64,000 nucleotides of DNA. Origin: a bacterium (lineage in GTDB: Bacteria > Zhuqueibacterota > Zhuqueibacteria > Residuimicrobiales > Krinioviventaceae). The DNA lies in the NCBI GenBank assembly GCA_963674595.2, contig CAXXFV010000003.1, positions 256,001-320,000 on the forward strand, in the 5' to 3' direction. Position numbers and translations under genes: made by a program. The notes under the pieces were generated by a model. The model was not told the origin of the DNA, made no database searches, and saw only the letters and a program-made list of their open reading frames with translations. Below are positions 35,103 through 59,746 of the stretch, in pieces (position 1 is the stretch's first letter; each line of letters begins with the position of its first letter).

Positions 35103-35186
35103 GCCGAAGTGGTGAAATTGGTAGACGCGCACGGTTCAGGGCCGTGTGGGCGCAAGCCCATGTGGGTTCGAGTCCCACCTTCGGCA
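35103..35186 (+). tRNA. tRNA-Leu (CAG), CCA not encoded
   Basis: GCCGAAG acceptor stem, CACGG-TTCAGGG-CCGTG anticodon arm, long variable arm, GGTTCGAGTCC. Confidence 0.96.
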
Positions 35187-35283: not shown

Positions 35284-36394
35284 ATGACAGAAACCATTAC
35301 AACAGGCATATTTAACAAAACAGAAAACGGGGCAGGATACCTTCGTAAACCGGAAAACTCTTTCATGCCGGACGAAACCGATGTTTTTGTTCCTAAAGAG
35401 ATTGTTGATAAATGCCAACTCGTTGACGGCGCAACAGTGACCGGTCCTTTTAAAGAGGATGAAAAAAAACCGACATTAATTTCCGTTTCCAAAATATGCA
35501 ATCTTTCTATTGAAAAATTTATTAAGAGGAAACCCTACAACAGATTACCTGCAATTTCGCCCAATAAAAGATGTTTGCTATCAACATCTGGTGACAAAAG
35601 CATGCGTGTTCTTGACCTTATTACACCAATAGGTAAAGGGACTCGCGGATTGATTGTTTCTCCACCCAAATCAGGAAAAACAACAATATTACAAAAAATT
35701 GCACAATCCATTTGTAAAAAAGACCCTTCGGTAAAAATTATTATACTGTTAATAGACGAACGTCCTGAAGAAGTTACATGGTTTAGAAGGTCCGTCAACG
35801 CAACTGTTTTAGCATCATCCAGTGATCAAAGCGTTAAAGACCATACCTATTTAGTTGAATTGACAATGGGTTATATTCAAACCGAGCTTGAATGCGGGCA
35901 TGATGTTGTGGTATTGGTGGATAGTTTAACACGAATGGGAAGAGCTTTTAATCTAACCAGTAAAGACAGGGGGACGAACTCTTTCAGGTGGTGTTGGTAT
36001 TCGAGCGCTTGAAATTCCAAGACGCTTTTTTGGAATGGCACGTCAAATTGAAGGCGGCGGTTCGGTTACAATTCTTGCAACAGCATTGATTGAAACCGGC
36101 TCACGAATGGACCAATATATTTTTGAAGAATTTAAAGGTACCGGAAACAGTGAAATAGTTTTGGACCGTTCTCTTTCAGAACATAGAATTTTTCCCGCTA
36201 TTGATATTTTGTCCAGCAGCAGCAGACGCGAGGAAAGGTTGTATACTCAAAATGAATATGAAAAAATCATAAAATTACGGCGAGCTCTTTCCTCTCTTAC
36301 ACCTTCAGAAGCAATGAACACCGTATTAAATATGATTAAAAAAACAAAAAATAATACACAATTGATAAATTCGATTGAAAAATATTTGCAATAG
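35284..36394 (+). pseudogene. rho: Transcription termination factor Rho, short form, split by a +1 frameshift in G5 (35969-35973); may be an assembly error
   Basis: GYLR...DVFV RNA-binding domain, PIGKGTRGLIVSPPKSGKT, LIDERPEEVT, DSLTR; removing one G gives GRTLSGGVGIRALEIPRRFFGMAR, joining ORF 36035..36394 (ATALIETGSRMD, EEFKGTGN). Confidence 0.9.
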
Positions 36395-43419: not shown

Positions 43420-43475
43420 TTGACAATTTAACATTGAATTAGTATATTTGTTCTAAGAATTTGAACCGGTTTAAA
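43420..43475 (+). promoter_or_regulatory. Promoter and LacI-family operator of the hexuronate operon
   Basis: TTGACA(43420)-17-TATATT(43443); near-palindrome TTTGAACCGGTTTAAA at 43460-43475. Confidence 0.8.
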
Positions 43476-43493
43476 AACTCACTGGAGGGCATA

Positions 43494-44483
43494 ATGCAGC
43501 CTATCAAATTATATCTTAAATTGTTTTCGATCTTATTGTTAGCCGTTTTTATTTTGTCAGGTTGCGGCACTAAAAGCAACGTTGTTTCATTAAAAATGGC
43601 TCATGGCCTGGATGTCAGTCATCCGGTTCACAAAGCTATGGTTTTTATGGCAGAGAAAGCCTGGGAAAAATCGGATTCAACATTAAAAGTTGATATCTAT
43701 CCAAGTGAACAATTGGGAAATGAAAAAGAGTGTATTGAACAACTGCAACTGGGAAGCCTGGCAATGACCAAAGTCTCCAGCAGCCCCCTGGAGAGTTTTA
43801 TTCCGAAATTAAAAGTATTGGCCCTCCCCTATTTGTTCCGAGATGCCGAACATAAATGGAACGTATTTAACGGACCGATTGGTAAAGAACTTTTATCTGC
43901 CGGTGAACCCGAAGGTTTAAAAGGATTATGTTTTTATGATGCAGGCGCCAGAAGTTTTTACACAACTTCTAAACCAATCCTGCACCCGGATGATCTGAAA
44001 GGTCTTAAAATAAGAACACAGCAAAGCCCGATGGCTATTAAAATGATCTCCACACTGGGCGGTTCAGCTACACCCATTTCATGGGGCGAACTTTATACCT
44101 CATTACAGCAGGGCGTTGTTGACGGTGCAGAAAACAATCAACCGAGTTTATACACCTCAAATCACTATGAAGTTTGTAAACATTATAGTCTGGATGAACA
44201 CACAATGGTTCCGGATATTGTTATGATCAGTACCATCGTGTGGAATCGTTTATCAGAGGCACATAAAAAAGCATTACAGGAAGCTATTGATGAATCCGTT
44301 CCCTATCAAATCAATCTTTGGAATGAGTTTGTTCGGGATGCAACAGATAAAATGGTGGCAAAAGGATTAAAAATATATAACCCGGATAAAGCCGCTTTTA
44401 TGGAACGAGCAAAAGAGATGTATAAAGAATTTGAAGGAACAGAAATCGGCGAACTGGCAAAACGTATTCAAAAAGTTGAGTAA
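43494..44483 (+). CDS. dctP: TRAP transporter substrate-binding lipoprotein (uronate-type)
   Basis: LSGC lipobox, YPSEQLGNEKE, FYDAGARSFY, KIRTQ, LQQGVVDGAENN; ATG 43494 with GGAGG RBS. Confidence 0.92.
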   Translation: MQPIKLYLKLFSILLLAVFILSGCGTKSNVVSLKMAHGLDVSHPVHKAMVFMAEKAWEKSDSTLKVDIYPSEQLGNEKECIEQLQLGSLAMTKVSSSPLESFIPKLKVLALPYLFRDAEHKWNVFNGPIGKELLSAGEPEGLKGLCFYDAGARSFYTTSKPILHPDDLKGLKIRTQQSPMAIKMISTLGGSATPISWGELYTSLQQGVVDGAENNQPSLYTSNHYEVCKHYSLDEHTMVPDIVMISTIVWNRLSEAHKKALQEAIDESVPYQINLWNEFVRDATDKMVAKGLKIYNPDKAAFMERAKEMYKEFEGTEIGELAKRIQKVE

Positions 44484-44486
44484 ATT

Positions 44487-45002
44487 ATGTGGATAAAAAT
44501 AAAATCTGCATTGGATAAATCACTGGAATGGTTAACGGCCATCCTCATGGCAGCATTAACCATTGATGTCACATGGCAGGTTATCACCAGATTTATTTTA
44601 AAAAACCCCAGTGACTGGACAGAAGAACTGGCCACGTTTCTTATGATTTGGGTTGGCTTATTGGGTGCAGCAGTTGCATTAAACAGAGGCGCCCACCTTG
44701 GCATAGATTATTTTGTGTCAAAATTCAAACCGGCTAACCGCCTGTTTACAGAGTTGTTTGTTCATCTGTCTGTAGGATTCTTTTCTGTTGGTGTTATGTT
44801 ATTAGGTGGTCTCAAGCTTGTTACTATAACCATGGCACGCGGACAGATTTCTCCGGCATTAAAAATCCCCATGGGATATGTTTATTTAGCAATACCCATT
44901 GCCGGATTTTTCTTAACATACTATAGTCTTGAATTTTTAATAGAAACAATAATAAAATTAAAGGCTAAAAATAAAAATGATGTTCCTTATGTAAAAATAT
45001 AA
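44487..45002 (+). CDS. dctQ: TRAP transporter small permease
   Basis: QVITRF...WTEELA...HLGID; 4 TM. Confidence 0.92.
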   Translation: MWIKIKSALDKSLEWLTAILMAALTIDVTWQVITRFILKNPSDWTEELATFLMIWVGLLGAAVALNRGAHLGIDYFVSKFKPANRLFTELFVHLSVGFFSVGVMLLGGLKLVTITMARGQISPALKIPMGYVYLAIPIAGFFLTYYSLEFLIETIIKLKAKNKNDVPYVKI

Positions 45003-45037
45003 TGTAATAACATTGACTCTTTAATAAAGGTTCTTCT

Positions 45038-46333
45038 ATGGATTGGCCTGTTATTGTTTTAATTACAAGTTTTCTTATATTTTTAGTATTAAATGTACCC
45101 ATAGCTGTTTCAATCGGTCTGTCATCGCTGTTGACCATTTTTACAATCGGAGGCATACCGGCATTTTTAACTATTGCACACAAAATTGCAACAGGAATAG
45201 ACAGTTTTGCATTGTTAGCTATACCATTTTTTATCCTGGCAGGACAACTAATGGGCCAGGGCGGAATTGCCAAACGTTTAATCGATTTTGCCAACGTGCT
45301 TGTCGGTAGATTTCCAGGCGGACTGTCCTTTGTCAACATTCTGACCTGCATGCTCTTTGGTGCAATATCCGGCTCTGCTGTTGCGGCCGTTTCGAGTGTT
45401 GGTGGTTTTATGATTCCGCTGATGAATAAAGAAGGTTATCACCGTGACTTTAATGCCTCTGTCACTATTACGGCGGCAACAACCGGTCTTCTTATTCCTC
45501 CGAGCAATGTAATGATTGTTTACTCCCTGGCTACAGGTGGTGCAGTTTCCATTGCCGCCATATTCCTGGCCGGATTTCTGCCGGGAATTTTAATGGGGCT
45601 TGGTTTAATGGTTGTCAGTGGATTCATATCCGTTAAAAATGGCTATGGTAAAGGTGTAACCTTTGGTTTTCAGGAAAGTATTAAAAGATTTCTAATCGCT
45701 ATCCCGGCACTGTTTTTAGTTGTACTGGTCCTTGGCGGTATTCTGGCCGGATATTTCACAGCCACGGAAGCCTCTGCTATTGCCGTTGTTTATGCGCTTA
45801 TTTTATCCGTCTTTGTTTATCGTGAAGTTAAAATAAAAGATTTACCCAAAATTTTCCTTCAGGCAGGAATCACTACCTCTGTTGTATTTCTATTAATTGG
45901 CACATCTATGGCCATGTCCTATGTTCTTGCTTATGAAAATATCCCCCAAAATATTAGCGCTGCGCTGCTGAGTATCACGCAAAACAAAATTATAATTTTA
46001 TTAATTATTAATTTATTATTATTGTTTGTCGGAACTTTTATGGATATGACGCCCGCAGTCCTTATTTTTACCCCTATTTTCCTCCCAATCGTTACAGGGC
46101 TGGGTGTGCATCCTATCCATTTTGGCATTCTGATGATTATGAATTTATGTATAGGCATTTGTACTCCACCTGTAGGTTCATGCCTTTTTGTAGGGTGTGG
46201 TATTGCCGAAACAACAATTACCAAAGTCATTCGCCATATTCTTCCATTTTTTATGGCAATGATAATCGTACTGTTTATAGTTACCTATATCCCTGCTATT
46301 TCTCTGATCGTACCAAAACTTTTTGGATTTTAA
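45038..46333 (+). CDS. dctM: TRAP transporter large permease
   Basis: LAIPFFILAG, FGAISGSAVA, LIPPS, FTATEA, GICTPPVG. Confidence 0.95.
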   Translation: MDWPVIVLITSFLIFLVLNVPIAVSIGLSSLLTIFTIGGIPAFLTIAHKIATGIDSFALLAIPFFILAGQLMGQGGIAKRLIDFANVLVGRFPGGLSFVNILTCMLFGAISGSAVAAVSSVGGFMIPLMNKEGYHRDFNASVTITAATTGLLIPPSNVMIVYSLATGGAVSIAAIFLAGFLPGILMGLGLMVVSGFISVKNGYGKGVTFGFQESIKRFLIAIPALFLVVLVLGGILAGYFTATEASAIAVVYALILSVFVYREVKIKDLPKIFLQAGITTSVVFLLIGTSMAMSYVLAYENIPQNISAALLSITQNKIIILLIINLLLLFVGTFMDMTPAVLIFTPIFLPIVTGLGVHPIHFGILMIMNLCIGICTPPVGSCLFVGCGIAETTITKVIRHILPFFMAMIIVLFIVTYIPAISLIVPKLFGF

Positions 46334-46336
46334 AAC

Positions 46337-46368
46337 AAAACGCCGGAATATAAAAACCGGCGTTTTTT
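46337..46368 (+). terminator. Hairpin/terminator after dctM
   Basis: AAAACGCCGG-10nt-CCGGCGTTTT(TT). Confidence 0.65.
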
Positions 46369-46379
46369 AACTACAAAAA

Positions 46380-46396
46380 TTAAAGCGGTTCAAATT
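46380..46396. promoter_or_regulatory. Second copy of the LacI-family operator, abutting the regulator ATG
   Basis: TTAAAGCGGTTCAAATT matches the reverse complement of 43458-43474 (TTAAACCGGTTCAAATT) at 16/17. Confidence 0.78.
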
Positions 46397-47434
46397 ATGG
46401 CAATTACAATTTCCGACATTGCACGGATTGCAGGTGTCTCTCGTGCAACTGTTTCCGGTGTTCTTAATAACAATCCATCTGTTAGTGAAAAAACCAGGCA
46501 ACGAATACTAACAATTATCAAAGAGCATGATTACAGACCAAATGAAATCGCTCGGGCATTAGCCTTAAATCAAACAGATATTATCGGACTTATTGTTAAA
46601 GATATTTCAAATCCCCTATATAGTAAAATTGCATTGGGTGTTGAAGAGACCTGTGCAAAAATGGGGTATTCAGTCATTATTGGTAACACTCAAAAAGATA
46701 TTCAACGCGAAATTTCACACATAAATCTGCTGAAAAGACGACGTGTAGACGGGCTCATTATTTTTCCATTGCAGCGAGGTGCAGATCTGGGTCATCTTTT
46801 TGAACTCAAAGAAGAAAATTATCCTTTTGTTCTTCTTGCTGAAGTTCCCGGTATAAAAGCAGACCTTGTCCGTTCGGATGATCAACCCGGCGCCTATCAG
46901 GCCACTAAACACCTGATAAATCTGGGTAGAAAACATATCGCTTACATAACAGGGCCGCAAAACGCCCTGGCAAATGACAGAAGACTTGGCTCCTATAAGC
47001 AGGCGCTCAATGATCACAATTTATCTTTAAATGAAGAACTGATACGTCCTGGCGGCTGGAGACGGAGTGACGGCTATAAAGCCGGTAAATTAATGCTAAA
47101 CGAGCTAAAAGAATATCCGGATGGTGCATTTTGTTACAACGATGCGGTTGCAATTGGTTTCATAAGAGCATTAGTTGAACATGGATTACGAATTCCCCAG
47201 GATGTGGCTATCGTCGGGTTTGATGATGCCGGTTCTGCCGCATATTTGGAGACAGCATTAACTACAGTAGAACAGCCCGCCAAAGAAATTGGAAACAAGG
47301 CCGCTCAATTGCTTGTAGAGCGGATTAAAAATAAAAAAGAACAACAGAGAACTAAAAAGATACTTTTACCCACATCATTAGTTATTCGTGAATCATGCGG
47401 TGCCAATGAAAAAGGTTCGGTTAAAGTATTCTAA
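46397..47434 (+). CDS. LacI family transcriptional regulator (hexuronate cluster)
   Basis: ITISDIARIAGVSRATVS, YRPNEIARAL, IVGFDD, LTTV, LVIRESC. Confidence 0.95.
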   Translation: MAITISDIARIAGVSRATVSGVLNNNPSVSEKTRQRILTIIKEHDYRPNEIARALALNQTDIIGLIVKDISNPLYSKIALGVEETCAKMGYSVIIGNTQKDIQREISHINLLKRRRVDGLIIFPLQRGADLGHLFELKEENYPFVLLAEVPGIKADLVRSDDQPGAYQATKHLINLGRKHIAYITGPQNALANDRRLGSYKQALNDHNLSLNEELIRPGGWRRSDGYKAGKLMLNELKEYPDGAFCYNDAVAIGFIRALVEHGLRIPQDVAIVGFDDAGSAAYLETALTTVEQPAKEIGNKAAQLLVERIKNKKEQQRTKKILLPTSLVIRESCGANEKGSVKVF

Positions 47435-47455
47435 GACAACAAAAAGGGTCTATCT

Positions 47456-48997
47456 ATGAAAAGCGATCAACAACTACAAGAATTGATGAATCAAATAAAA
47501 ACTCAATTTGACATCAAAATTGAAAAATATTATGAAACATCTTTGGTCGATAAAGATCAACAGAATTATGTGCTTTTAAAAACTGAAACCAGTAAAAAAT
47601 TGTTGGTATGGGGTCAGGAAGCGGATGCTCAGTTTAAGGGCGAGTCTGTTCAGTTAAAAATAGGTGATGTTGATTATGATGTAAAACTGTGCCCGCTTAC
47701 CCATGAAAATAGTTTAATAATGAGAAAAGTCTTTCCCTGGACAGGTCCAAAAACGGTTGGGTTACAAACGAGTTTCGGTGCCGGAGACAGAATTGGTGTT
47801 GCAACCCCCGGTCATATCAGAGCGCTGAAACAATACAACATCGTTCCGGTAATTGCCCAACAATCCATTCGCGAAATGAACCGAACGGTCCGTACATCAG
47901 AAGAGGTTATGGATGATGTTACCTGGGCTGTTTTTCAGGAAGGATATAAAGATGGATTCGGTTCTGACGCTGATCACCTTAAAACAGAACAGGATATTCA
48001 AAATACATTTGCAGCCGGATTTACAGGCTTTACCGTTGATCCATCCGACCATATAAATAATGAGGCAGACACATTAACTTCGGATGATCTTGAAAAAGCA
48101 TATCTTGGCGTATTTGATTCACCTGAATCAGCACAGGAGTTTTTAAAAAAATATGCTAATAACGAGGTCACGGTAAAAGGTAATGACAGATCATTAACTC
48201 TTTTTATCCCGGAAGAAGAAGTCAAAAGACTGGCCGTAAAATATATGACGGCAATCAAACATACCATCAACTGTTATAACCTTTTAAAGTCTCTTCATGG
48301 TGATAAGGAATTTGATTTTGAAATGTCGGTAGACGAAACAGAAACACCAACAACAGTAGCTGCCCATTATATCGTAGCAAACGAATTAGCCAAAGCTGAG
48401 GTACAGTGCACTTCGTTGGCGCCGAGGTTTATTGGTGAATTTCAAAAAGCAATCGATTATATCGGTGATGTCGATACGTTCCGCCAGCAGCTTATCGATC
48501 ATGTAACAATTTCTCAACATTTTGGCGGCTACAAAATCAGCATCCATTCCGGAAGTGATAAATACTCTATCTTTCCGATTGTTGGTGAAGAAACAAAAGG
48601 CGTATTTCATGAAAAAACAGCCGGCACAAGTTATCTTGAAGCATTACGAATTGTCAGCCGACATGATACAAAGTTGTTCCGTGAGATCGCCGTATTTGCA
48701 CGCGAAAAATTTGAAAAAGAACGTTTTTCCTATCATGTAACAACAGATATGAAAAAAGTTCCGACTGTAGATCAACTGACCGATGCTCAACTGGAATCCA
48801 TGCTGAACGAAGACGATGCAAGACAGGTACTGCATATCACTTTTGGTGGTACGTTGACGGAAAAGGATGCAAACGGTAATTATATTTTCAGAAATCGTAT
48901 TCTGGATGTTTTACACAAACAGGAAGAAGAACATTATAACGTTCTGGAAACTCTTTTTATAAAACATATTGAAGCATTTGGCGTTACAAAAAAATAA
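47456..48997 (+). CDS. uxaE: Tagaturonate/fructuronate epimerase
   Basis: SFGAGDRIG.ATPGH, AQQSIREM.RT, FGSDADHLK, FEMSVDET, APRFIGEFQKAIDY, KISIHSGSDK, KTAGTSYLEALR, RQVLHIT. Confidence 0.92.
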   Translation: MKSDQQLQELMNQIKTQFDIKIEKYYETSLVDKDQQNYVLLKTETSKKLLVWGQEADAQFKGESVQLKIGDVDYDVKLCPLTHENSLIMRKVFPWTGPKTVGLQTSFGAGDRIGVATPGHIRALKQYNIVPVIAQQSIREMNRTVRTSEEVMDDVTWAVFQEGYKDGFGSDADHLKTEQDIQNTFAAGFTGFTVDPSDHINNEADTLTSDDLEKAYLGVFDSPESAQEFLKKYANNEVTVKGNDRSLTLFIPEEEVKRLAVKYMTAIKHTINCYNLLKSLHGDKEFDFEMSVDETETPTTVAAHYIVANELAKAEVQCTSLAPRFIGEFQKAIDYIGDVDTFRQQLIDHVTISQHFGGYKISIHSGSDKYSIFPIVGEETKGVFHEKTAGTSYLEALRIVSRHDTKLFREIAVFAREKFEKERFSYHVTTDMKKVPTVDQLTDAQLESMLNEDDARQVLHITFGGTLTEKDANGNYIFRNRILDVLHKQEEEHYNVLETLFIKHIEAFGVTKK

Positions 48998-49009
48998 CCG
49001 GAGGAAATT

Positions 49010-49789
49010 TTGAGTTATATTGAAAACATTTTTAGTTTAAAAGGTAAAGTTGCAGCGGTTATCGGCGGCGGTGGTGTCTTGGCCGGCGCTATGGCAGAAG
49101 GTTTGGCAAAAGCCGGAGCTGACATAGCCATTCTGGACTTGAACCCGGAAAATGCAAAAAACACAGCGGATAAAATGAGTGCGCATGGTGTAAAATCACT
49201 GCCCATTGCTGTTAATGCAACATCCAAAGAAGAATTGACTAAAGCAGAAGAACAGATCAGAAAAGAGCTGGGTGCCACATCCATTCTTATTAATGCACCC
49301 GGAATCAACTCGTCCACACCGTTTTTCGAAATTGCAGAAGAAGAATGGGACAAAATTATACAGGTAAACCTGAAAAGCATTTTTATGGCCAGTCAAATTT
49401 TCGGTAAAAAAATGATTGAGAATAATTTAAAAGGAAGCATTATAAATATTTCATCAGCTTCCTCAGGACCGCCTCTGTCTAAAGTTTTTACCTATAGCAT
49501 TAGTAAAGCCGGTATAAATAACATGACACAGTTTTTAGCTAAAGAATGGGCAACGCAGGGTATACGCGTTAATGCAATTGCACCCGGATTTTTTCCGGCA
49601 GAACAAAACAGAAAAATCCTGACAAAAGAACGTGTAGCATCCATTATGGGGCATACCCCAATGGACCGTTTCGGTGAAGCTGAAGAGCTTGTCGGCGCAA
49701 CCATTTGGTTGGCCTCTGAAAAGGCCTCCTCATTTGTTACAGGTGCTATTGTCAGAGTCGATGGTGGATTTACAGCAATGACGATATAA
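49010..49789 (+). CDS. uxuB: SDR oxidoreductase, probable fructuronate reductase / D-mannonate oxidoreductase
   Basis: GGGGVLAG, PLSKVFTYSISK, RVNAIAPGFFPAEQNR, HTPMDRFG motifs of the SDR-type UxuB group; context. Confidence 0.72.
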   Translation: MSYIENIFSLKGKVAAVIGGGGVLAGAMAEGLAKAGADIAILDLNPENAKNTADKMSAHGVKSLPIAVNATSKEELTKAEEQIRKELGATSILINAPGINSSTPFFEIAEEEWDKIIQVNLKSIFMASQIFGKKMIENNLKGSIINISSASSGPPLSKVFTYSISKAGINNMTQFLAKEWATQGIRVNAIAPGFFPAEQNRKILTKERVASIMGHTPMDRFGEAEELVGATIWLASEKASSFVTGAIVRVDGGFTAMTI

Positions 49790-49863
49790 TTATTTTAGGA
49801 ATGTCAATAATAATTTATAAAAATAAACAACTAAACTTGAAACAAGAATTTGGAGTCATTTAA

Positions 49864-51318
49864 ATGAGTACTTTTGACATTGGACTTGTCGGGCTCGCCG
49901 TTATGGGTGAGAATTTGGTTTTAAATATGGAAAATCACGGTTTTTCAGTTGCCGTATTCAACAGAACAACAAGCAAGGTTGACAATTTTGTAAACGGCCG
50001 TGCAAAAGGCAAAAACATTAAAGGCTGTTATTCTATTGAAGAGTTGATTGCCAATTTAAAACGACCACGCAAAATCATGTTAATGGTTAAAGCCGGTGCA
50101 GCAGTAGACAGTTTTATAGAAATGCTGCTTCCGCATTTGGAAAAAGGCGACATTATCATTGACGGCGGTAACAGCCATTTTCCGGATACCATGCGACGAA
50201 CAAATTATCTTGAAGAAAAAGGTGTTCTTTTTATCGGTACCGGTGTTTCCGGCGGCGAAGAAGGCGCATTAACCGGTCCTTCAATTATGCCGGGCGGTTC
50301 AACTGAAGCATGGCCGCATGTAAAACCGATTTTTCAGGCAATTGCAGCCAAAGTTTCCGATGGTTCACCCTGCTGCGAATGGGTAGGACGTGATGGTGCA
50401 GGCCATTTTGTTAAAACAGTCCACAATGGCATCGAATACGGTGATATGCAGATGATTTGTGAAGCTTATAATTTGATGAAAAATGTTTTAGGCATGTCTA
50501 CTGAAGAAATGCACAACGTTTTTGGTGAATGGAATAAAGGCGAACTGGACAGTTATTTAATCGAAATTACCCGAGATATTCTGGCTAAAAAAGATGAAGA
50601 AACAAACGAACCGATTGTAGAATTAATTCTTGATACGGCTGGTCAAAAAGGCACCGGTAAATGGACCAGTCAGGCTGCATTGGACCTCGGCATCCCGGCA
50701 CAAACAGTTGCCGAAGCGGTGTTTGCCCGCGCTATGAGTGCTATTAAAGAAGAACGTGTTGCTGCATCCAAAGAGTTAAAAGGACCGGATGCAAAATTTA
50801 CCGGAGATAAAGAAGAATTTGTTGAAATGATCCGTAAAGCATTATACGCTTCAAAAATTTGTTCCTATGCTCAGGGTTACCAGCTCATGCGCGCAGCCGC
50901 AGCAGAATATAACTGGGACCTGAAATATGGTGAAATCGCACTGATGTGGCGCGGCGGATGTATTATTCGCGCTCACTTTTTGGAAAAAATTAAAGCAGCT
51001 TTTGATAAAAAACCGGACCTGGCAAATCTGCTGCTCGATCCGTACTTTAACAATATTATCGAACAAAATCAAAAGGCATGGCGGGCCGTTATTTCCAAAG
51101 CTGTTGAAATTGGTATTCCGGTTCCTGCATTTAACAGCGCCCTGGCTTATTATGACAGTTACCGAAACGAACGTTTACCGGCGAATCTGCTTCAAGCCCA
51201 AAGAGATTACTTTGGCGCACACACTTATGAAAGAATCGACAAACCTAGAGGTGAGTTCTTCCATACAAATTGGACAGGACGCGGTGGCACTACTTCAGCA
51301 ACAACCTATAACGCTTAG
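49864..51318 (+). CDS. gndA: 6-phosphogluconate dehydrogenase, decarboxylating (NADP)
   Basis: [51 protein letters not shown]. Confidence 0.97.
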
Positions 51319-51335
51319 TGTCTGTTCACTGAATG

Positions 51336-51363
51336 ATTCGGCCCGTTCGATTACGGGCCGAAT
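51336..51363 (+). terminator. Internal hairpin after gnd (terminator or stabiliser)
   Basis: ATTCGGCCCGT-6nt-ACGGGCCGAAT. Confidence 0.6.
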
Positions 51364-51389
51364 ATTATTTTATATATTATGTGAGAAAA

Positions 51390-52157
51390 ATGAATACCAA
51401 TTTTAATTTAGAAAATAAAACAGCTCTGATAACAGGAGCCAGCCGTGGTTTGGGTAAAGCTGTTTCACTGGCTTTTGCCGACGCAGGTGCAGACATTGTT
51501 CTGGTTTCGCGAGGTGAAAAAGCTTTGCTCAAAGTGAAAGCAGAAATTGAATTAAAAAACAAAAAAGCCTGGATATTTACGCACGATTTTTCAGATACGC
51601 AGGCCATCCCTGAACTTTATGACAGAATTTTAGAACAAACAAAATCCATTGACATTATTGTCAATGCAGCCGGAATGATCTTCAGGACCGATGCAGCCGA
51701 TTTTCCGTTGGAAGAATGGAATAAAATTCTGGCCGTTAACCTGACGGCCCCTTTTGTCCTGAGCCAGTGTTTTGCAAAATCCTGTATGAAACAACAAAAA
51801 CCAGGAAAAATCATCAACTTTGCTTCTCTGCTCAGCAGAGCGGCGCGACCGTCTCTTCCGGCATATACGGCGAGCAAGGGCGGTATTGTTCAGTTAACAG
51901 CAGCGCTGGCTGTTGAATGGGCGGAGCATCGTATTAATGTCAATGCCATCGGCCCCGGATATTTTGAAACAGAAATGACACGGCCGTTGTCTGAAGATAA
52001 AGAATTTTCAGAATGGGTCAAACAACGTACGCCCATGAATCGTTGGGGACAGCCGTCCGAGCTGACAGGTACGGCCGTCTTTTTAGCATCCGAAGCATCA
52101 AATTTTATTACCGGACAGACGATTTATGTAGACGGCGGCTGGCTGGCCAATTTATAA
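51390..52157 (+). CDS. SDR, KduD / gluconate 5-dehydrogenase family
   Basis: TGASRGLG, YTASKGG, NVNAIGPGYFETE, RTPMNRWG, VDGGWL; likely ATG 51390. Confidence 0.8.
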   Translation: MNTNFNLENKTALITGASRGLGKAVSLAFADAGADIVLVSRGEKALLKVKAEIELKNKKAWIFTHDFSDTQAIPELYDRILEQTKSIDIIVNAAGMIFRTDAADFPLEEWNKILAVNLTAPFVLSQCFAKSCMKQQKPGKIINFASLLSRAARPSLPAYTASKGGIVQLTAALAVEWAEHRINVNAIGPGYFETEMTRPLSEDKEFSEWVKQRTPMNRWGQPSELTGTAVFLASEASNFITGQTIYVDGGWLANL

Positions 52158-52181
52158 ACATATATTTCAGGAAAAAATATA

Positions 52182-53450
52182 ATGATCGGACAAGGATTCA
52201 CAGATAAAAATTTAAATGAACAGCAGGTTCAGGAACTTTGCCGACAGGCTTTTGAAGAGAATAAAAACCTGCTTGAAGGGAAAAAAGTATTGGCCATTAT
52301 TCCGGACCATTCCCGAACCGCGCCAATTGATATAATGTTTCGCACTTTTTATAACCTGTTGGCAGATAAAGTTAAAAATCTTGATTTTATCATTGCCTTA
52401 GGGACCCATCCGCCTATGACGGAAGAAATGATTTATCAGCGTGTGGGTATAACCGCAGAACAGCATCAAAACGTGTACTCAAAAGCACGTTTTTTCAATC
52501 ATCACTGGGACGACCCCGCGCAACTGGCGAATATCGGGACAATTTCAGCAAAACAAGTTGCCGAAATATCCAACGGACTTTTGAATGAAAAAGTTGATGT
52601 AACAATCAATAAAATGGTGCTGGATTATGATGTTCTCTTCATCATTGGCCCGACGTTCCCGCACGAAGTTGTGGGATTTTCAGGCGGAAATAAATATTTA
52701 TTTCCGGGTATCGGCGGAAAAGAAATTATCGACATGTTTCACTGGCTGGGCGCTTTAATAACCAATCCGGCAATTATAGGGACAAAATACACACCCGTCC
52801 GTAAAGTTGTGGACATCGCCGCTGCATTTTTACCGGTTCCTCGCTTATGTGCAAGTCTGGTTGTGAAGGGAACCGACCTTGCCGGTTTATATATCGGTAC
52901 CCCGGAAGAGGCCTGGGCTTCCGCATCAAATTTATCAGATAAATTACATATTGTATATAAGGACCATCCTTTTAAAAGTGTTTTATCATGTGCACCTGCC
53001 ATGTACGATGAAATATGGACAGGCGGTAAATGCATGTACAAGCTGGAACCCGTTGTAGCAGATGGCGGGGAACTGATTATTTATGCTCCTCATATCAGCG
53101 AGGTTTCCATCACACATGGAAAAATTATCGAACAAATCGGTTACCATGTTCGAGATTATTTTACAAAACAGCCTGAAAAATTTGCCGATATTCCGGGCGG
53201 TGTTAAAGCACATTCAACACATGTCAGGGGTGTCGGTACATTTGAAAATGGCATAGAAAAACCCAGGGTGCAGGTGACGCTGGCCACAAAAATACCGGAA
53301 GAAACTTGTAAAAAGATTAATCTGGGTTATCGTGATCCGGATTCGATTGACGTTTCCGAGTGGCAGGACCGGGAAGATGAAGGTTATTTATATGTTAAAA
53401 AAGCAGGTGAAATGCTGTATCGGTTAAAAAATGATCCGTTTAAATTATAA
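52182..53450 (+). CDS. LarA-family nickel-pincer hydroxyacid racemase/epimerase (GntE-like candidate)
   Basis: PDHSR, ALGTH, PHEVVGFSGGNK, FHW: positions equivalent to LarA D72/R75, H108, H174, K184, H200. Confidence 0.85.
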   Translation: MIGQGFTDKNLNEQQVQELCRQAFEENKNLLEGKKVLAIIPDHSRTAPIDIMFRTFYNLLADKVKNLDFIIALGTHPPMTEEMIYQRVGITAEQHQNVYSKARFFNHHWDDPAQLANIGTISAKQVAEISNGLLNEKVDVTINKMVLDYDVLFIIGPTFPHEVVGFSGGNKYLFPGIGGKEIIDMFHWLGALITNPAIIGTKYTPVRKVVDIAAAFLPVPRLCASLVVKGTDLAGLYIGTPEEAWASASNLSDKLHIVYKDHPFKSVLSCAPAMYDEIWTGGKCMYKLEPVVADGGELIIYAPHISEVSITHGKIIEQIGYHVRDYFTKQPEKFADIPGGVKAHSTHVRGVGTFENGIEKPRVQVTLATKIPEETCKKINLGYRDPDSIDVSEWQDREDEGYLYVKKAGEMLYRLKNDPFKL

Positions 53451-53483
53451 TTATATATAGATACGATTATTTCGGAGGATAAA

Positions 53484-54776
53484 ATGGCGTTAAATAAAAA
53501 TGTTGTGGTTGCACAATCCGGTGGTCCATCGCCGGTCATTAATAATACCCTTCGCGGTATTATTGAAACGTGCAAAATGTTTCCAGATAAATTTGACAAA
53601 ATCTATGGCGGATGGCATGGTATTGAAGGCGTTCTGAAAGAAGAACTACTGGATATTACCGCACAAACAGAAGAAGAAATCAGTTTATTAAGAACAACAC
53701 CCGCCGCCGGTTCCATCGGTACATGTCGTTACAAACTGAAAGCAAACCAACAGGAAGATTTTGAACGGGTTGTAGAGGTTTTAAAGGCCCATAATATCGG
53801 CTACTTTTTCTACATCGGTGGTAATGATTCCATGGACACGGCAAACAAAATTGCACAAATAGCCCATGAAAAAGGATTGGACCTGATTGCTGTCGGTGGT
53901 TCCAAAACAATCGATAACGACGTAGGTGATTCCGAATTTAAGCTTGTCGATCACACACCCGGTTATGGTTCTGTCGCCAAATACTGGGCCATGAATGTGC
54001 AAAATGCCAATGAAGAAAACATGGGATCCTGCCCGGCTGATCCTGTGCTTGTTATGCAGGTGATGGGACGAAAAATAGGATTTATTCCCGCCGCAGCTCG
54101 TTTGGCAGATGTAAAACGTGAATTACCATTGCAAATTTATATGCCGGAATCAAACCTTACCCTGGATGAACTGACCGACAATGTAAATGACGAATTAGCC
54201 AAAAGCGGCCGTTGTATTGTTGTTGTTAGTGAAGGATTTGACGTTGGTGATCTTGGTGAAATGAAAGACGGATTCGGTCATACCGAATTCAGCGCCAGCA
54301 TGTTTACCGCGCAGCAGATTATCGTTAACCACCTTAATAAAGTGGGTATCAAAGCAAAAGGCGCTGCCAGAGGTCAGGTTGTTGGAACAGACCAGCGTGA
54401 TACAATGATTTACGCTTCAACGGTTGATTTGGATGAAGCCTACAAAGTCGGACAAAATGCCGTTGTTATCGCTGTTGAACACGGATCCGGTTACATGTCA
54501 ACAATCTTGCGCCGACCTGGATTGATTTACAATGTTGATTTTGACAAGGTCCCGCTTGATGAAGTTGCCAATTCTGAACGGGAATTCCCGAAAAACTGGA
54601 TTACGGAAAATAAAATTGACGTAACAGATGATTTTGTAAAATATGCCCGTCCCTTAATCGGAGAAGAATGGGTCAGCGTACCTGTGATAAACGGTATTCA
54701 ACGTTTTGCACGATTTGCACCCATATTTGCAGACAAAAAACTGCCGGCCTATGTGCCGCAAACAGAACGAAAATAA
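53484..54776 (+). CDS. PFK-A family phosphotransferase with PPi-type signature
   Basis: QSGGPSPVIN, GTCRYKL, GGNDS, KTIDND, TPGYGS, MGR, VSEG. Confidence 0.88.
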   Translation: MALNKNVVVAQSGGPSPVINNTLRGIIETCKMFPDKFDKIYGGWHGIEGVLKEELLDITAQTEEEISLLRTTPAAGSIGTCRYKLKANQQEDFERVVEVLKAHNIGYFFYIGGNDSMDTANKIAQIAHEKGLDLIAVGGSKTIDNDVGDSEFKLVDHTPGYGSVAKYWAMNVQNANEENMGSCPADPVLVMQVMGRKIGFIPAAARLADVKRELPLQIYMPESNLTLDELTDNVNDELAKSGRCIVVVSEGFDVGDLGEMKDGFGHTEFSASMFTAQQIIVNHLNKVGIKAKGAARGQVVGTDQRDTMIYASTVDLDEAYKVGQNAVVIAVEHGSGYMSTILRRPGLIYNVDFDKVPLDEVANSEREFPKNWITENKIDVTDDFVKYARPLIGEEWVSVPVINGIQRFARFAPIFADKKLPAYVPQTERK

Positions 54777-54817
54777 AATAACATTTAATATAAGAATTTA
54801 TAAAAAAGGAAAAATAT

Positions 54818-55702
54818 ATGTCAGATCCCCAAGCACCCTTGAAAGATTTGCAGCCAAAACATGAATATTTGGTAGCGATCGACTCGGATGGTTGTGCCTT
54901 TGATACAATGGAAATCAAACACAAAGAATGTTTTATCCCCAATATTATTAAATATTGGGATCTTCAAAGCGTATCCAAATACGCCAGAATGGCGGCCGAA
55001 TTTGTTAACCTGTATTCAAAATGGCGCGGTATTAACCGTTTTCCGGCGTTGACCATGGTTTTTGATCTGCTGCAGGAATGGCCGGATGTTCAAAAACGAC
55101 ATGTTAAAATACCACAGGCACAAGCCGTGCGTGACTGGATAGAACGGGAAACAAAACTGGGAAACCCGGCATTAAAGGCACTTGTTGAAAAAACCAGTGA
55201 TCCGGTACTAACACAAGCCCTTGACTGGAGTGAAGCTGTAAATGCAACCGTAACCGATATGGTGCACGGAGTCCCTCCTTTTCCGTTCGTTAAAGAAAGC
55301 CTGGAAAAAATTTCAGAATGGGCGGACATTATCGTTTGTTCGGCAACCCCAAATGAAGCTTTACAGCGTGAATGGGAAGAACACGACATTGCCAAATACA
55401 CGCGTGTTATTGCAGGCCAGGAAATGGGTAGTAAAAAAGAACATTTAGCTTTTATGACCCAAAATAAATATAAAAGTGATCATGTTCTTATGATTGGCGA
55501 TGCACCGGGAGACCGGAAAGCAGCGGAAGCCAACAATACCCTCTTTTTTCCAATCAAACCCGGTCACGAAGATGAAAGCTGGGAATTCTTTTTAAACAAT
55601 GCCTCGGACAAGTTTAAAAACGGAGCATATACGGCCGAGTATCAGGCAGGGTTAATCAAGGAATTTGAAGCCCTGTTGCCGACGACACCTCCCTGGAAAT
55701 AA
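54818..55702 (+). CDS. HAD family hydrolase (probable sugar-acid phosphatase)
   Basis: IDSDGC motif I, CSAT, K, MIGDAPGD. Confidence 0.85.
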   Translation: MSDPQAPLKDLQPKHEYLVAIDSDGCAFDTMEIKHKECFIPNIIKYWDLQSVSKYARMAAEFVNLYSKWRGINRFPALTMVFDLLQEWPDVQKRHVKIPQAQAVRDWIERETKLGNPALKALVEKTSDPVLTQALDWSEAVNATVTDMVHGVPPFPFVKESLEKISEWADIIVCSATPNEALQREWEEHDIAKYTRVIAGQEMGSKKEHLAFMTQNKYKSDHVLMIGDAPGDRKAAEANNTLFFPIKPGHEDESWEFFLNNASDKFKNGAYTAEYQAGLIKEFEALLPTTPPWK

Positions 55703-55711
55703 TGTTTTATT

Positions 55712-55745
55712 AAAAGCCTTTTCATAATTAATGAAAAGGCTTTTT
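55712..55745 (+). terminator. Terminator of the hexuronate operon
   Basis: AAAAGCCTTTTTCAT / ATGAAAAGGCTTTT inverted repeat with U-tract. Confidence 0.8.
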
Positions 55746-58666: not shown

Positions 58667-59746
58667 TTAGGGGGCTTGACAGGAATTTCTCATAACCAAT
58701 TCCGGTTTCAGGTAGATTTTATCAGATAAATCAGACAAATCCTTTTTTTCAATCTTGTCAATAAGTAACTGAGCCGCCTGAGATCCAATCCGGTCAAGCG
58801 GTTCCCGAACGGTTGTTAATGAAGGTCTGGAATATTCAGCTAAAACGACATCCCCAAATCCGATAACAGACATATCATTTGGGACTTTAATTTTGTTTGC
58901 AGAAAGTATATTAATAACATTTATAGCCATTGGATCATCGAGAACAAACAAAGCCGTGGGACGCTCCTGCAAGGCCAAAATTCGTTTAACCAAATCTTGA
59001 TCAATGTTTGGATGTATATCATTGAATAATATTGCTTCCTCCGGTAATTCAATTCCATGGGATTTTAACGCCTTTAGAGCGCCTTGCAATCGTTCTCGAC
59101 TACTGAACGATTTCAATCCCCGTGCGATAATTGCAATTTTACGATGCCCAAGAGACACTAAATAGTCAATAGCTAATTTAGCGCCGGAAATGTTATCCGT
59201 ACCGACAATCGGTCCTTCCACATTCATGGCTTGACGCCAAATATTAACAAATTCCATTTTTCGTTCTTTAAGTTCCCGGACTTTTTGTGCTAATTTTTCA
59301 TCAAGATAATCGGCAGTAAATATCACAACACCATCAACATGGCGCTCGGAAATTAAATGCGCATACGAATCGGATAAACGCGGATCTGTGATAATTTCCT
59401 CATTAAATATCATCAGGTTGTATGATTTTTTTTGTGCCATTTCAACAATCCCCTTCATGACGCCAAAGGAATAGGCACTGTCGAACAAATCAACGGCACT
59501 GGGTGTAATTATTCCGATGGCAAAGGCACGGTTCAGGGAAAAAGCTCTTGCCAGCCTGTTCGGCACATAATTTAATTCTTTGGCAGCAGCAATGACCCGT
59601 TCACGAGTGGCTTCACTTATCCGTATAGGACTTTTTCGCTGGTTAAGAATGATAGAGACGGTTGCTTTACTGACGTTCGCTTTTTCAGCAATATCAGCCA
59701 GGGTTGGCAGAATACCATGGCCTTCATTTTTTCTGTTATTTCTCAT
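58667..59746 (-). CDS. LacI family transcriptional regulator (orphan)
   Basis: TLADIAEKANVSKATVS, YVPNRLAR, SVIGFGD, PSLTTV, LVMRNSC. Confidence 0.95.
   Translation of the reverse strand: MRNNRKNEGHGILPTLADIAEKANVSKATVSIILNQRKSPIRISEATRERVIAAAKELNYVPNRLARAFSLNRAFAIGIITPSAVDLFDSAYSFGVMKGIVEMAQKKSYNLMIFNEEIITDPRLSDSYAHLISERHVDGVVIFTADYLDEKLAQKVRELKERKMEFVNIWRQAMNVEGPIVGTDNISGAKLAIDYLVSLGHRKIAIIARGLKSFSSRERLQGALKALKSHGIELPEEAILFNDIHPNIDQDLVKRILALQERPTALFVLDDPMAINVINILSANKIKVPNDMSVIGFGDVVLAEYSRPSLTTVREPLDRIGSQAAQLLIDKIEKKDLSDLSDKIYLKPELVMRNSCQAP

Follow-up and report, generated by a model that had tools for sequence, protein, structure and literature searches.

Which enzyme phosphorylates the sugar acid in a bacterium whose hexuronate cluster leads to 6-phosphogluconate dehydrogenase and whose genome has no recognizable gluconokinase? 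The question is raised by a cluster of 13 genes at positions 43420-55745 of a 64,000-nucleotide window, by which we mean the whole stretch of DNA analyzed (positions 256,001 to 320,000 of contig CAXXFV010000003.1, GenBank assembly GCA_963674595.2, from a member of the Krinioviventaceae in the order Residuimicrobiales). All genes lie on the + strand with short gaps, and their families were assigned with Pfam and NCBIfam. The original prediction had described a co-directional dctPQM-lacI-uxaE-SDR-gnd-SDR-larA-pfk-HAD cluster (SDR, short-chain dehydrogenase/reductase; PFK, phosphofructokinase; HAD, haloacid dehalogenase), and the open reading frames (ORFs) and families agree with this, the limits coinciding with a promoter-like site and a terminator-like hairpin. 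It had also led the carbon from mannonate through gluconate and 6-phosphogluconate to Gnd. That flow fits the genome context; however, it had already been proposed for Thermotoga, and the scheme contained no kinase. What is new here is the kinase slot, probably occupied by a PFK-family gene that we call pfkX together with the HAD gene, and a LarA homologue in a genome without larB, larC and larE. The cluster is probably a LacI-repressed operon that takes D-glucuronate and D-galacturonate via an isomerase into the pentose-phosphate route, with pfkX as the C6 kinase.

In the pathway that we propose, the uronate would be imported by the tripartite ATP-independent periplasmic (TRAP) transporter, as the relatives of its binding protein suggest, and UxaC, encoded by a single-copy gene away from the operon (C6:7780-9225), would give fructuronate or tagaturonate. 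Judged by their families, UxaE would convert tagaturonate to fructuronate and SDR1, perhaps also SDR2, would reduce fructuronate to D-mannonate. The GntE-type LarA homologue would then invert C2 to the gluconate configuration, if it has the activity of its Thermotoga maritima homologue. pfkX would phosphorylate C6 in the place of GntK, as the missing gene and its displacement elsewhere suggest; residues of the pyrophosphate (PPi) type point to pyrophosphate as the donor. A dedicated Gnd would, by family, finally yield ribulose-5-phosphate, CO2, and NADPH. Phosphorylation could precede or follow the step of the epimerase or that of the reductase, and the substrate of the kinase could be fructuronate, mannonate, or gluconate.

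The kinase slot and pfkX

The genes that the original prediction had listed as missing from the window are indeed missing: a Pfam scan of the window ORFs (at least 150 amino acids at 1-40 kb, at least 100-120 elsewhere) found no uxuA, uxaA, PfkB-type kdgK, eda, uxaC, or gntK. The dehydratase route, likewise said to be missing, is absent genome-wide, as neither UxuA nor UxaA was found in this genome (97.56% complete), and UxaA was found in none of 11 genomes, namely this one and 10 relatives. A PfkB kinase gene and an Eda gene form a pair elsewhere on C8, which could not take mannonate or altronate because UxuA and UxaA are missing. The genome-wide search for uxaC, uxuA, and gntK returned the unlinked uxaC and neither of the other two. 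A second gnd, 50% identical to that of the operon, lies at C23:10074-11462, and the operon gnd is a dedicated paralogue. The parts of the proposed pathway are thus present, with UxaE, SDR, the GntE-like protein, and Gnd in the operon and UxaC unlinked.

For gluconokinase itself, the SKI-type model TIGR01313 had no match in this genome, and matches to the FGGY-type model TIGR01314 reached at most 145 bits (cut-off 649). We searched 50 genomes with the cluster whole. SKI-type gntK scored above the cut-off in one and FGGY-type gntK in none; three had an FGGY match at E≤1e-80, the level reached by the T. maritima FGGY gntK control. At these calibrated thresholds, 46 of the 50 have no gluconokinase-like gene.

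pfkX orthologues, 68-87% identical, were found in 55 loci of other genomes, among them metagenome-assembled genomes (MAGs) of KSB1, Calditrichota, Ignavibacteria, Bacteroidota, Elusimicrobia, Planctomycetota, Hydrogenedentota, and others. The neighborhood survey, which the original prediction had named as a check, confirmed that the genes travel together: a HAD homologue is present in 53 of the 55 loci (in the other two the contig breaks off), one of LarA in 44 (at 53-74% or 28-33% identity to the window copy), gnd in 41, SDR1 in 38, uxaE in 24, and SDR2 in 15. With the gene set recurring at 55 pfkX loci, the cluster is more than a chance arrangement. Among 80 metagenome loci of GntE-like genes, SKI gntK occurs in four, an FGGY kinase in three, and pfkX with HAD in three; the remaining contigs are mostly too short for a call, and three loci were confirmed by Pfam. 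Such a distribution across gene neighborhoods is what one would expect if unrelated enzymes fill the same step. The original prediction could place neither the PFK homologue nor the HAD protein in the pathway. For the first, the lack of a recognizable gntK in the genome and the displacement among GntE loci make pfkX the likely kinase, and we regard a PFK-family enzyme as the most likely, if far from certain, occupant of the gluconate-kinase slot; the second still has no assigned step.

The closest structures to pfkX in the PDB are 3K2Q (E-72) and 3HNO (E-69), both PPi-dependent PFKs (PPi-PFKs) of subfamily PRK14072. The genome has four other PFK genes, one of which passes the PPi-PFK equivalog cut-off, and five other carriers of the cluster have three to nine PFK matches each. 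pfkX appears not to be the housekeeping PFK of its genomes, and its context argues against a glycolytic role. The motifs of Escherichia coli PfkA have known roles, and R162, R243, H249, and R252 hold the 6-phosphate of fructose-6-phosphate (F6P). In that numbering, transferred by alignment, R72, T125-I-D127-N-D129, M169-G-R171, and E222 correspond in pfkX to R82, T142-D146, M194-R196, and E250, all invariant in 53 orthologues. In the 6-phosphate site, R243 and R252 are kept (R296 and R305), R162 is replaced by P187 after D186, and H249 by T302 followed by D303; R162 and H249 are likewise missing from many other proteins of the subfamily. The pyrophosphate-type signature, Asp104 together with Lys124, is invariant in the 53 orthologues, as are P187 and T302-D303. 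pfkX thus shares with the PRK14072 PPi-PFKs the fold, the TIDND and MGR motifs, the E222 and R72 equivalents, Asp104, and Lys124, at an identity of about 40%. It differs from them in that its clade has an insertion after TIDND and T-D-Q-R in place of H-I-Q-R, and in that it always stands with the HAD gene (bar contig ends), in most loci accompanied by gnd and a LarA homologue.

A library-wide search returned four full-length representatives with at least 50% identity to pfkX, the next being at most 43% identical. In a quick tree, the 10 tips that carry the insertion after TIDND group together (support 0.974), and within this clade pfkX belongs to a subclade of six tips (support 0.656). From these comparisons, pfkX would be an active phosphotransferase of a distinct clade, probably using PPi. 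The residues show no substrate, and the role of a sugar-acid kinase is inferred from context. No paper on a PFK-family sugar-acid kinase was found in a limited literature search.

Several observations weigh against the reading of the operon given above. pfkX scores above the PPi-PFK subfamily cut-off, and its nearest solved relatives are PPi-PFKs. N114, D115, K141, and the loss of the R162 equivalent are common across the subfamily and not special to pfkX; an attempt to derive specificity from residues was dropped when an alignment of representatives showed this. Four FGGY matches exist in this genome, any of which could be a gluconate kinase, and a transaldolase (PF00923) match is lacking in this 97.56%-complete genome, which would suit a role of some PFK as a sedoheptulose-7-phosphate (S7P) kinase. 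The uxaC gene is not linked to the operon, and no operator-like site was found upstream of it with five substitutions allowed; the operon transcript may be divided at the hairpin that separates gnd from SDR2. The HAD protein lacks an assigned pathway step, and in three full-flank metagenome loci (L082, L093, and L158) its gene stands with gntE and gnd but without pfkX. Finally, this genome has no LarC, its matches to the LarB and LarE models stay under the cut-off, and the epimerase may lack its cofactor given the absence of larB, larC, and larE.

Part of this evidence, together with the intact catalytic residues, would fit an ordinary reversible PPi-PFK, or an S7P kinase for pentose-phosphate outflow (S7P to sedoheptulose-1,7-bisphosphate to dihydroxyacetone phosphate and erythrose-4-phosphate), with gluconate phosphorylated by one of the unlinked FGGY paralogues. 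Homologous PPi-PFKs have been read in the S7P sense in Thermogutta (10.1101/179903). However, transaldolase is present in four of four other cluster genomes tested, and replacement of transaldolase by pfkX was rejected on this ground. A bona fide PPi-PFK is encoded elsewhere in the genome, along with three further PFKs, and pfkX falls in the insertion clade, apart from the bulk of the subfamily. Also against this explanation stand the GntE loci, which carry pfkX, GntK, or FGGY as alternatives, and the 46 cluster genomes without a gluconokinase-like gene. An ordinary PPi-PFK would leave the HAD protein equally without a role. We consider this explanation unlikely.

The HAD partner of pfkX appears, from its motifs, to be a catalytically competent phosphatase or phosphotransferase. 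IDSDGC, CSAT, K206, and GDAPGD (D22, D24, S175, T177, K206, D228, and D232) are invariant in 42 sequences, and the predicted structure (predicted local distance difference test score, pLDDT, 94.8) has a Rossmannoid core and a large helical cap about twice the usual size. Foldseek gave 173 matches at E≤0.001; the matches listed are HAD-superfamily chains, generic and 9-17% identical, and include phosphoglycolate phosphatases (the best), a mannitol-1-phosphate phosphatase domain, CbbY, and a Bacteroides pyrophosphatase. A sequence search of the PDB returned nothing at E≤10, and a protein atlas returned only "HAD family" clusters. The HAD gene is absent from seven GntE loci with GntK or FGGY. An apparent 551-amino-acid HAD fusion in locus L093 was dismissed, since the HAD protein begins at a Met within the ORF and the in-frame sequence before it is unrelated. 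The repair enzymes PGP and Pho13 destroy 4-phosphoerythronate, an inhibitor of 6-phosphogluconate dehydrogenase. The HAD protein of the window resembles them in its DxD core, C1 cap, and phosphoglycolate phosphatase fold matches, and it is linked to gnd; it differs in being only 9-17% identical to any solved HAD and in the size of its cap. Our guess by analogy is that it may be a proofreading phosphatase for phospho-aldonates that are mis-phosphorylated or inhibit Gnd; a role as a phosphotransferase is also conceivable.

The GntE-like epimerase and the missing cofactor genes

The closest solved relative of the LarA homologue is PDB 4NAR (E 3.8e-69 over residues 16-417), which is T. maritima GntE2, a nickel-pincer-dependent D-mannonate/D-gluconate 2-epimerase in vitro whose role had earlier been predicted from gene context (PMC7583248). 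The match upholds the view of the original prediction that the operon LarA homologue is GntE-like, and we regard it as a candidate hexonate 2-epimerase; the NCBIfam model for putative hexonate epimerases gave only 186 bits (cut-off 500). LarA has catalytic D72, H108, H174, and K298 and cofactor-binding R75, K184, and H200 (Lactobacillus plantarum numbering), and groups 18-20 of the family have a signature of an H-E-V/S loop and a W (PMC7583248). The equivalents in the window protein are D42, R45, H76, H161, E162, V163, K171, H187, W279, and K283. Of 45 cluster-linked LarA homologues, 44 retain the full set of catalytic and cofactor residues, whether LarC is present or not; the 45th is an N-terminally short ORF in which three aligned positions are missing. 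The genome has three Lar_N genes, and the two other paralogues likewise keep the equivalents of D72, R75, H108, H174, K184, H200, and K298.

Whether the epimerase acts before or after the kinase bears on the substrate of pfkX. Extracts of L. suebicus convert mannonate to 6-phosphomannonate and then to 6-phosphogluconate, by genes that were not assigned, and form no gluconate from mannonate without ATP (PMC6978723). In this order the kinase would act first on mannonate or fructuronate, and the SDR and/or the LarA homologue would act on 6-phospho intermediates, turning 6-phosphomannonate into 6-phosphogluconate. The high Km of GntE2 for mannonate, 17 mM, favors it (PMC7583248), as does chemical reasoning: fructuronate offers a CH2OH beside the keto carbon, the target of PFKs, and its carboxylate would mimic the 6-phosphate of F6P. 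PdxB-like dehydrogenases (2-Hacid_dh and DUF3410) inside pfkX-HAD-LarA-gnd clusters point the same way. The PdxB family of E. coli acts on a phosphorylated aldonate. On the other side, GntE2 is active on unphosphorylated mannonate (PMC7583248), the clusters of loci L039 and L070, with only gnd, pfkX, HAD, and a TRAP transporter, suggest a substrate for which no reductase or epimerase is required, namely gluconate itself, and the residues do not separate the options. We hold kinase-first to be possible rather than probable; it is a sub-variant compatible with pfkX as the C6 kinase.

The PdxB-like genes lie at L042:12735-13898, L060:6108-7307, and L059:13823-14976 in Elusimicrobia, Hydrogenedentota, and Bacteroidales MAGs, the Bacteroidales copy being split into two ORFs. 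Xylose-isomerase-like AP_endonuc_2 genes occur in L042, L060, L053, and L093. Minimal clusters are found in L039, L070, L063, and L064, where gnd, pfkX, and HAD are joined by either a TRAP transporter or an SDR; no LarA homologue was found within 10 kb in these four loci, and all four genomes have LarC.

The absence of the cofactor genes is not peculiar to this genome. The proteins encoded by a relative's lar cluster gave no tblastn match in it, and LarA homologues, one to five each, occur in 31 of 31 sampled genomes of the order, whereas LarC, LarB, and LarE are present in the same three and all absent from the remaining 28. One genome of the order without larB, larC, and larE (G008, locus L018) is a closed 6.5-Mb chromosome, 100% complete, with the same cluster. 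Among the carriers of the pfkX cluster, LarC was found in 18 of 50, and among the 43 carriers with a cluster LarA homologue, in 14 and not in 29. The epimerase step should require a nickel-pincer cofactor, which this genome is unable to make by known genes. The original prediction had counted a lack of larB, larC, and larE against itself, and they are lacking, yet the epimerase keeps every cofactor residue, which makes a puzzle rather than a clean refutation.

One way out would be that the LarA homologue is inert for want of the cofactor and that the operon serves only gluconate, or 5-ketogluconate via SDR2, which resembles gluconate 5-dehydrogenases. The missing genes here and in the closed relative, and the lack of LarC in 29 of 43 genomes with a cluster LarA homologue, would agree with this. 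It is countered by the residues, intact in all but one of the 45 cluster-linked homologues. The one to five LarA homologues in every genome of the order sampled argue further that function is under selection. An inert LarA would moreover leave UxaE and the mannonate-type SDR without an outlet, since UxuA and UxaA are absent, and the TRAP receptor resembles a uronate binder. We think an inert epimerase quite improbable. The LarA proteins appear to be under selection for cofactor binding in genomes without a known route to its synthesis. The passages of the lar papers that we consulted, including PMC7583248, treat only the opposite case of larB, larC, and larE without larA, and a limited literature search found no paper on salvage of the nickel-pincer cofactor and no further lar-gene paper dated up to 2019.

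The two other LarA homologues of the genome, at C1:49516-50790 and C4:53376-54635 (L015 and L016), have full Lar_N and LarA_C domains and directly adjoin genes for rubrerythrin and peroxiredoxin. Further neighbors of the C1 copy encode a DUF4254 protein, a cysteine-desulfurase-like class-V aminotransferase, and NifU. Such surroundings might be relevant to the cofactor puzzle.

Taking both parts together, it is conceivable, though less likely than not, that pfkX founds a widespread, mis-annotated clade that would phosphorylate an unphosphorylated sugar acid (gluconate, mannonate, or fructuronate) with PPi, the carboxylate replacing the 6-phosphate of F6P, with the HAD protein as partner, and that whole lineages run several LarA epimerases without LarB, LarC, and LarE by scavenging the cofactor from neighbors or by a novel synthesis.

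Operon layout, uptake, and the candidate operator

The features of the cluster are collected in Table 1. The TRAP transporter is complete, and the Pfam scores of DctP, DctQ, and DctM are far above the cut-offs. The closest solved relatives of DctP are 4X8R (E 1.1e-77) and 4N8Y (E 6.7e-75), which were bound to glucuronate and galacturonate (PMC11668362), and the receptor looks like a uronate binder and not a gluconate binder. Related loci have uxaC, GH88, pectinesterase, KduI, and Eda genes nearby. The hexuronate context claimed by the original prediction is in line with the ligands of the DctP relatives and with the uxaC, GH88, pectinesterase, and KduI genes. SDR1 has the D-mannonate oxidoreductase model NF006132 as its top NCBIfam match, with 273 bits (cut-off 281). 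SDR2 matches KduD and gluconate-5-dehydrogenase models, all under the cut-off, and its top PDB match is 4G81, a "putative hexonate dehydrogenase" (E 4e-67). The LacI-family protein stays under all NCBIfam equivalog cut-offs.

Table 1. Features of the hexuronate cluster and their positions in the window
Feature	Position	Strand	Evidence
Promoter-like site TTGACA-17-TATATT	43420-43448	+	Top score of region, 11/12
Candidate LacI-type operator TTTGAACCGGTTTAAA, 16-nt palindrome	43460-43475		Conservation, uniqueness
dctP, TRAP solute-binding protein, probable uronate receptor	43495-44483 (longest ORF from 43461)	+	PF03480, 283 bits
dctQ, TRAP small permease	44487-45002	+	PF04290, 114 bits
dctM, TRAP large permease	45038-46333	+	PF06808, 398 bits; TIGR00786, 434 bits
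LacI-family repressor	46397-47434	+	LacI HTH and Peripla_BP_3/1 domains
uxaE, tagaturonate/fructuronate epimerase homologue	47456-48997	+	PF16257, 579 bits, full profile
SDR1, probable fructuronate reductase (mannonate oxidoreductase-like SDR)	49010-49789	+	NF006132
gnd, decarboxylating 6-phosphogluconate dehydrogenase	49864-51318	+	TIGR00873, 787 bits (cut-off 427)
G+C-rich hairpin with weak T tract, between gnd and SDR2	51336-51363	+	11-pair stem, 7 GC pairs
SDR2, hexonate/keto-hexonate dehydrogenase-like SDR	51390-52157 (longest ORF from 51333)	+	KduD and gluconate-5-dehydrogenase models
GntE-type LarA homologue, hexonate 2-epimerase candidate	52182-53450	+	Lar_N PF09861, 83 bits
pfkX, PFK-family phosphotransferase, PRK14072 (PPi-PFK-like) subfamily	53484-54776	+	NF010675, 375 bits (cut-off 273); PF00365, 123 bits
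HAD-superfamily phosphatase/phosphotransferase-type protein, large C1 cap	54818-55702	+	HAD motifs, predicted structure
Terminator-like hairpin ending the operon	55712-55744	+	14-pair stem, then TCATTTTAAT

The total of promoter-like sites in the region is not above that of shuffled sequences, so the case for the site at the head of the cluster is made by its position and score. The longest-ORF starts of dctP and SDR2 are probably wrong. ATG 43495 is preceded by GGAGGG and followed by a lipobox-like LSGC, the listed TTG 43461 falls within the operator, and the longest-ORF start of SDR2 lies upstream of the hairpin; ATG 43495 and ATG 51390 suit ribosome-binding sites and family alignments. The hairpin between gnd and SDR2 is possibly a partial terminator or an RNA stabilizer.

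The palindrome TTTGAACCGGTTTAAA, located 12 nt 3' of the -10 box, has its sole exact copy in the 6.6-Mb genome here, and the same palindrome stands just 5' of dctP in three related genomes (loci L018, L020, and L022). We infer that it is a candidate operator of the LacI repressor of the cluster. Copies with one mismatch exist only at C8:379240, 5' of a GH92 gene apparently split into two ORFs, and at C16:621952, 277 bp upstream of a TonB-dependent receptor gene; neither gene looks related to the pathway. A wider LacI regulon was considered and rejected, as one-mismatch copies occur only at the GH92 and TonB-receptor genes and none at uxaC.

Elsewhere in the window, a second LacI-family regulator (58667-59746, - strand) lies 3 kb 3' of the operon, past genes for an acyl-ACP thioesterase and a PMT_2-like membrane protein. 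A complete rRNA operon (27284-32452, - strand; 16S, two spacer tRNAs, 23S, and 5S) accounts for the G+C peak at 28-32 kb, and a further tRNA lies at 35103-35186. A 242-amino-acid ORF at 35284-36012 has a Rho RNA-binding domain and part of an ATPase domain; Rho is usually much longer, and this ORF may be truncated, frameshifted, or wrongly delimited.

Comparison with known pathways and significance

The T. maritima operon of the UxaR regulon was reportedly described by Rodionova et al. in 2012 (as cited in PMC3750489 and PMC7583248). The operon aldH-pelB-gnd-uxaRED-gntEK is "required for galacturonate catabolism," and a transport system in other Thermotoga species has been named uxaPQM (PMC3750489). 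The cluster of the window resembles the T. maritima operon in bringing together UxaE, an SDR fructuronate reductase, a GntE-type LarA homologue, and Gnd under regulation, and in the logic from uronate through mannonate, gluconate, and 6-phosphogluconate to ribulose-5-phosphate. The two differ in the kinase (FGGY-type GntK in T. maritima, a PFK-family gene and HAD in the window), in the regulator (GntR-type in Thermotoga, LacI-type in the window), in uptake (an ABC transporter versus a TRAP transporter), and in the cofactor genes, since larB, larC, and larE are present in T. maritima, where they served as search controls, and absent from the genome of the window. With the galacturonate route of L. 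suebicus the proposed pathway shares UxaC, UxaE, a fructuronate reductase, a kinase, a 2-epimerase that leads to 6-phosphogluconate, and Gnd, that is, a redox-neutral entry into the pentose-phosphate pathway. The kinase activity on mannonate in L. suebicus was ascribed to GntK homologues and the epimerase gene was not identified (PMC6978723), whereas the kinase candidate in the window belongs to the PFK family.

Should pfkX prove to be a sugar-acid kinase, the name "diphosphate--fructose-6-phosphate 1-phosphotransferase" would be wrong for thousands of environmental genes that bear it today (8000 candidates so named by their sources were scored). pfkX would be the first PFK-family enzyme to act on a non-phosphorylated substrate, and would provide a gene for the mannonate/gluconate kinase step left unassigned in L. 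suebicus. Metabolic models of KSB1, Calditrichota, Ignavibacteria, Bacteroidota, and other groups would then be missing a redox-neutral route from the uronates of pectin and glucuronoxylan to pentose phosphate. For the order, LarA in 31 of 31 genomes against larB, larC, and larE in three would mean that the cofactor is exchanged between microbes, that it is made in another way, or that the enzymes work without it.

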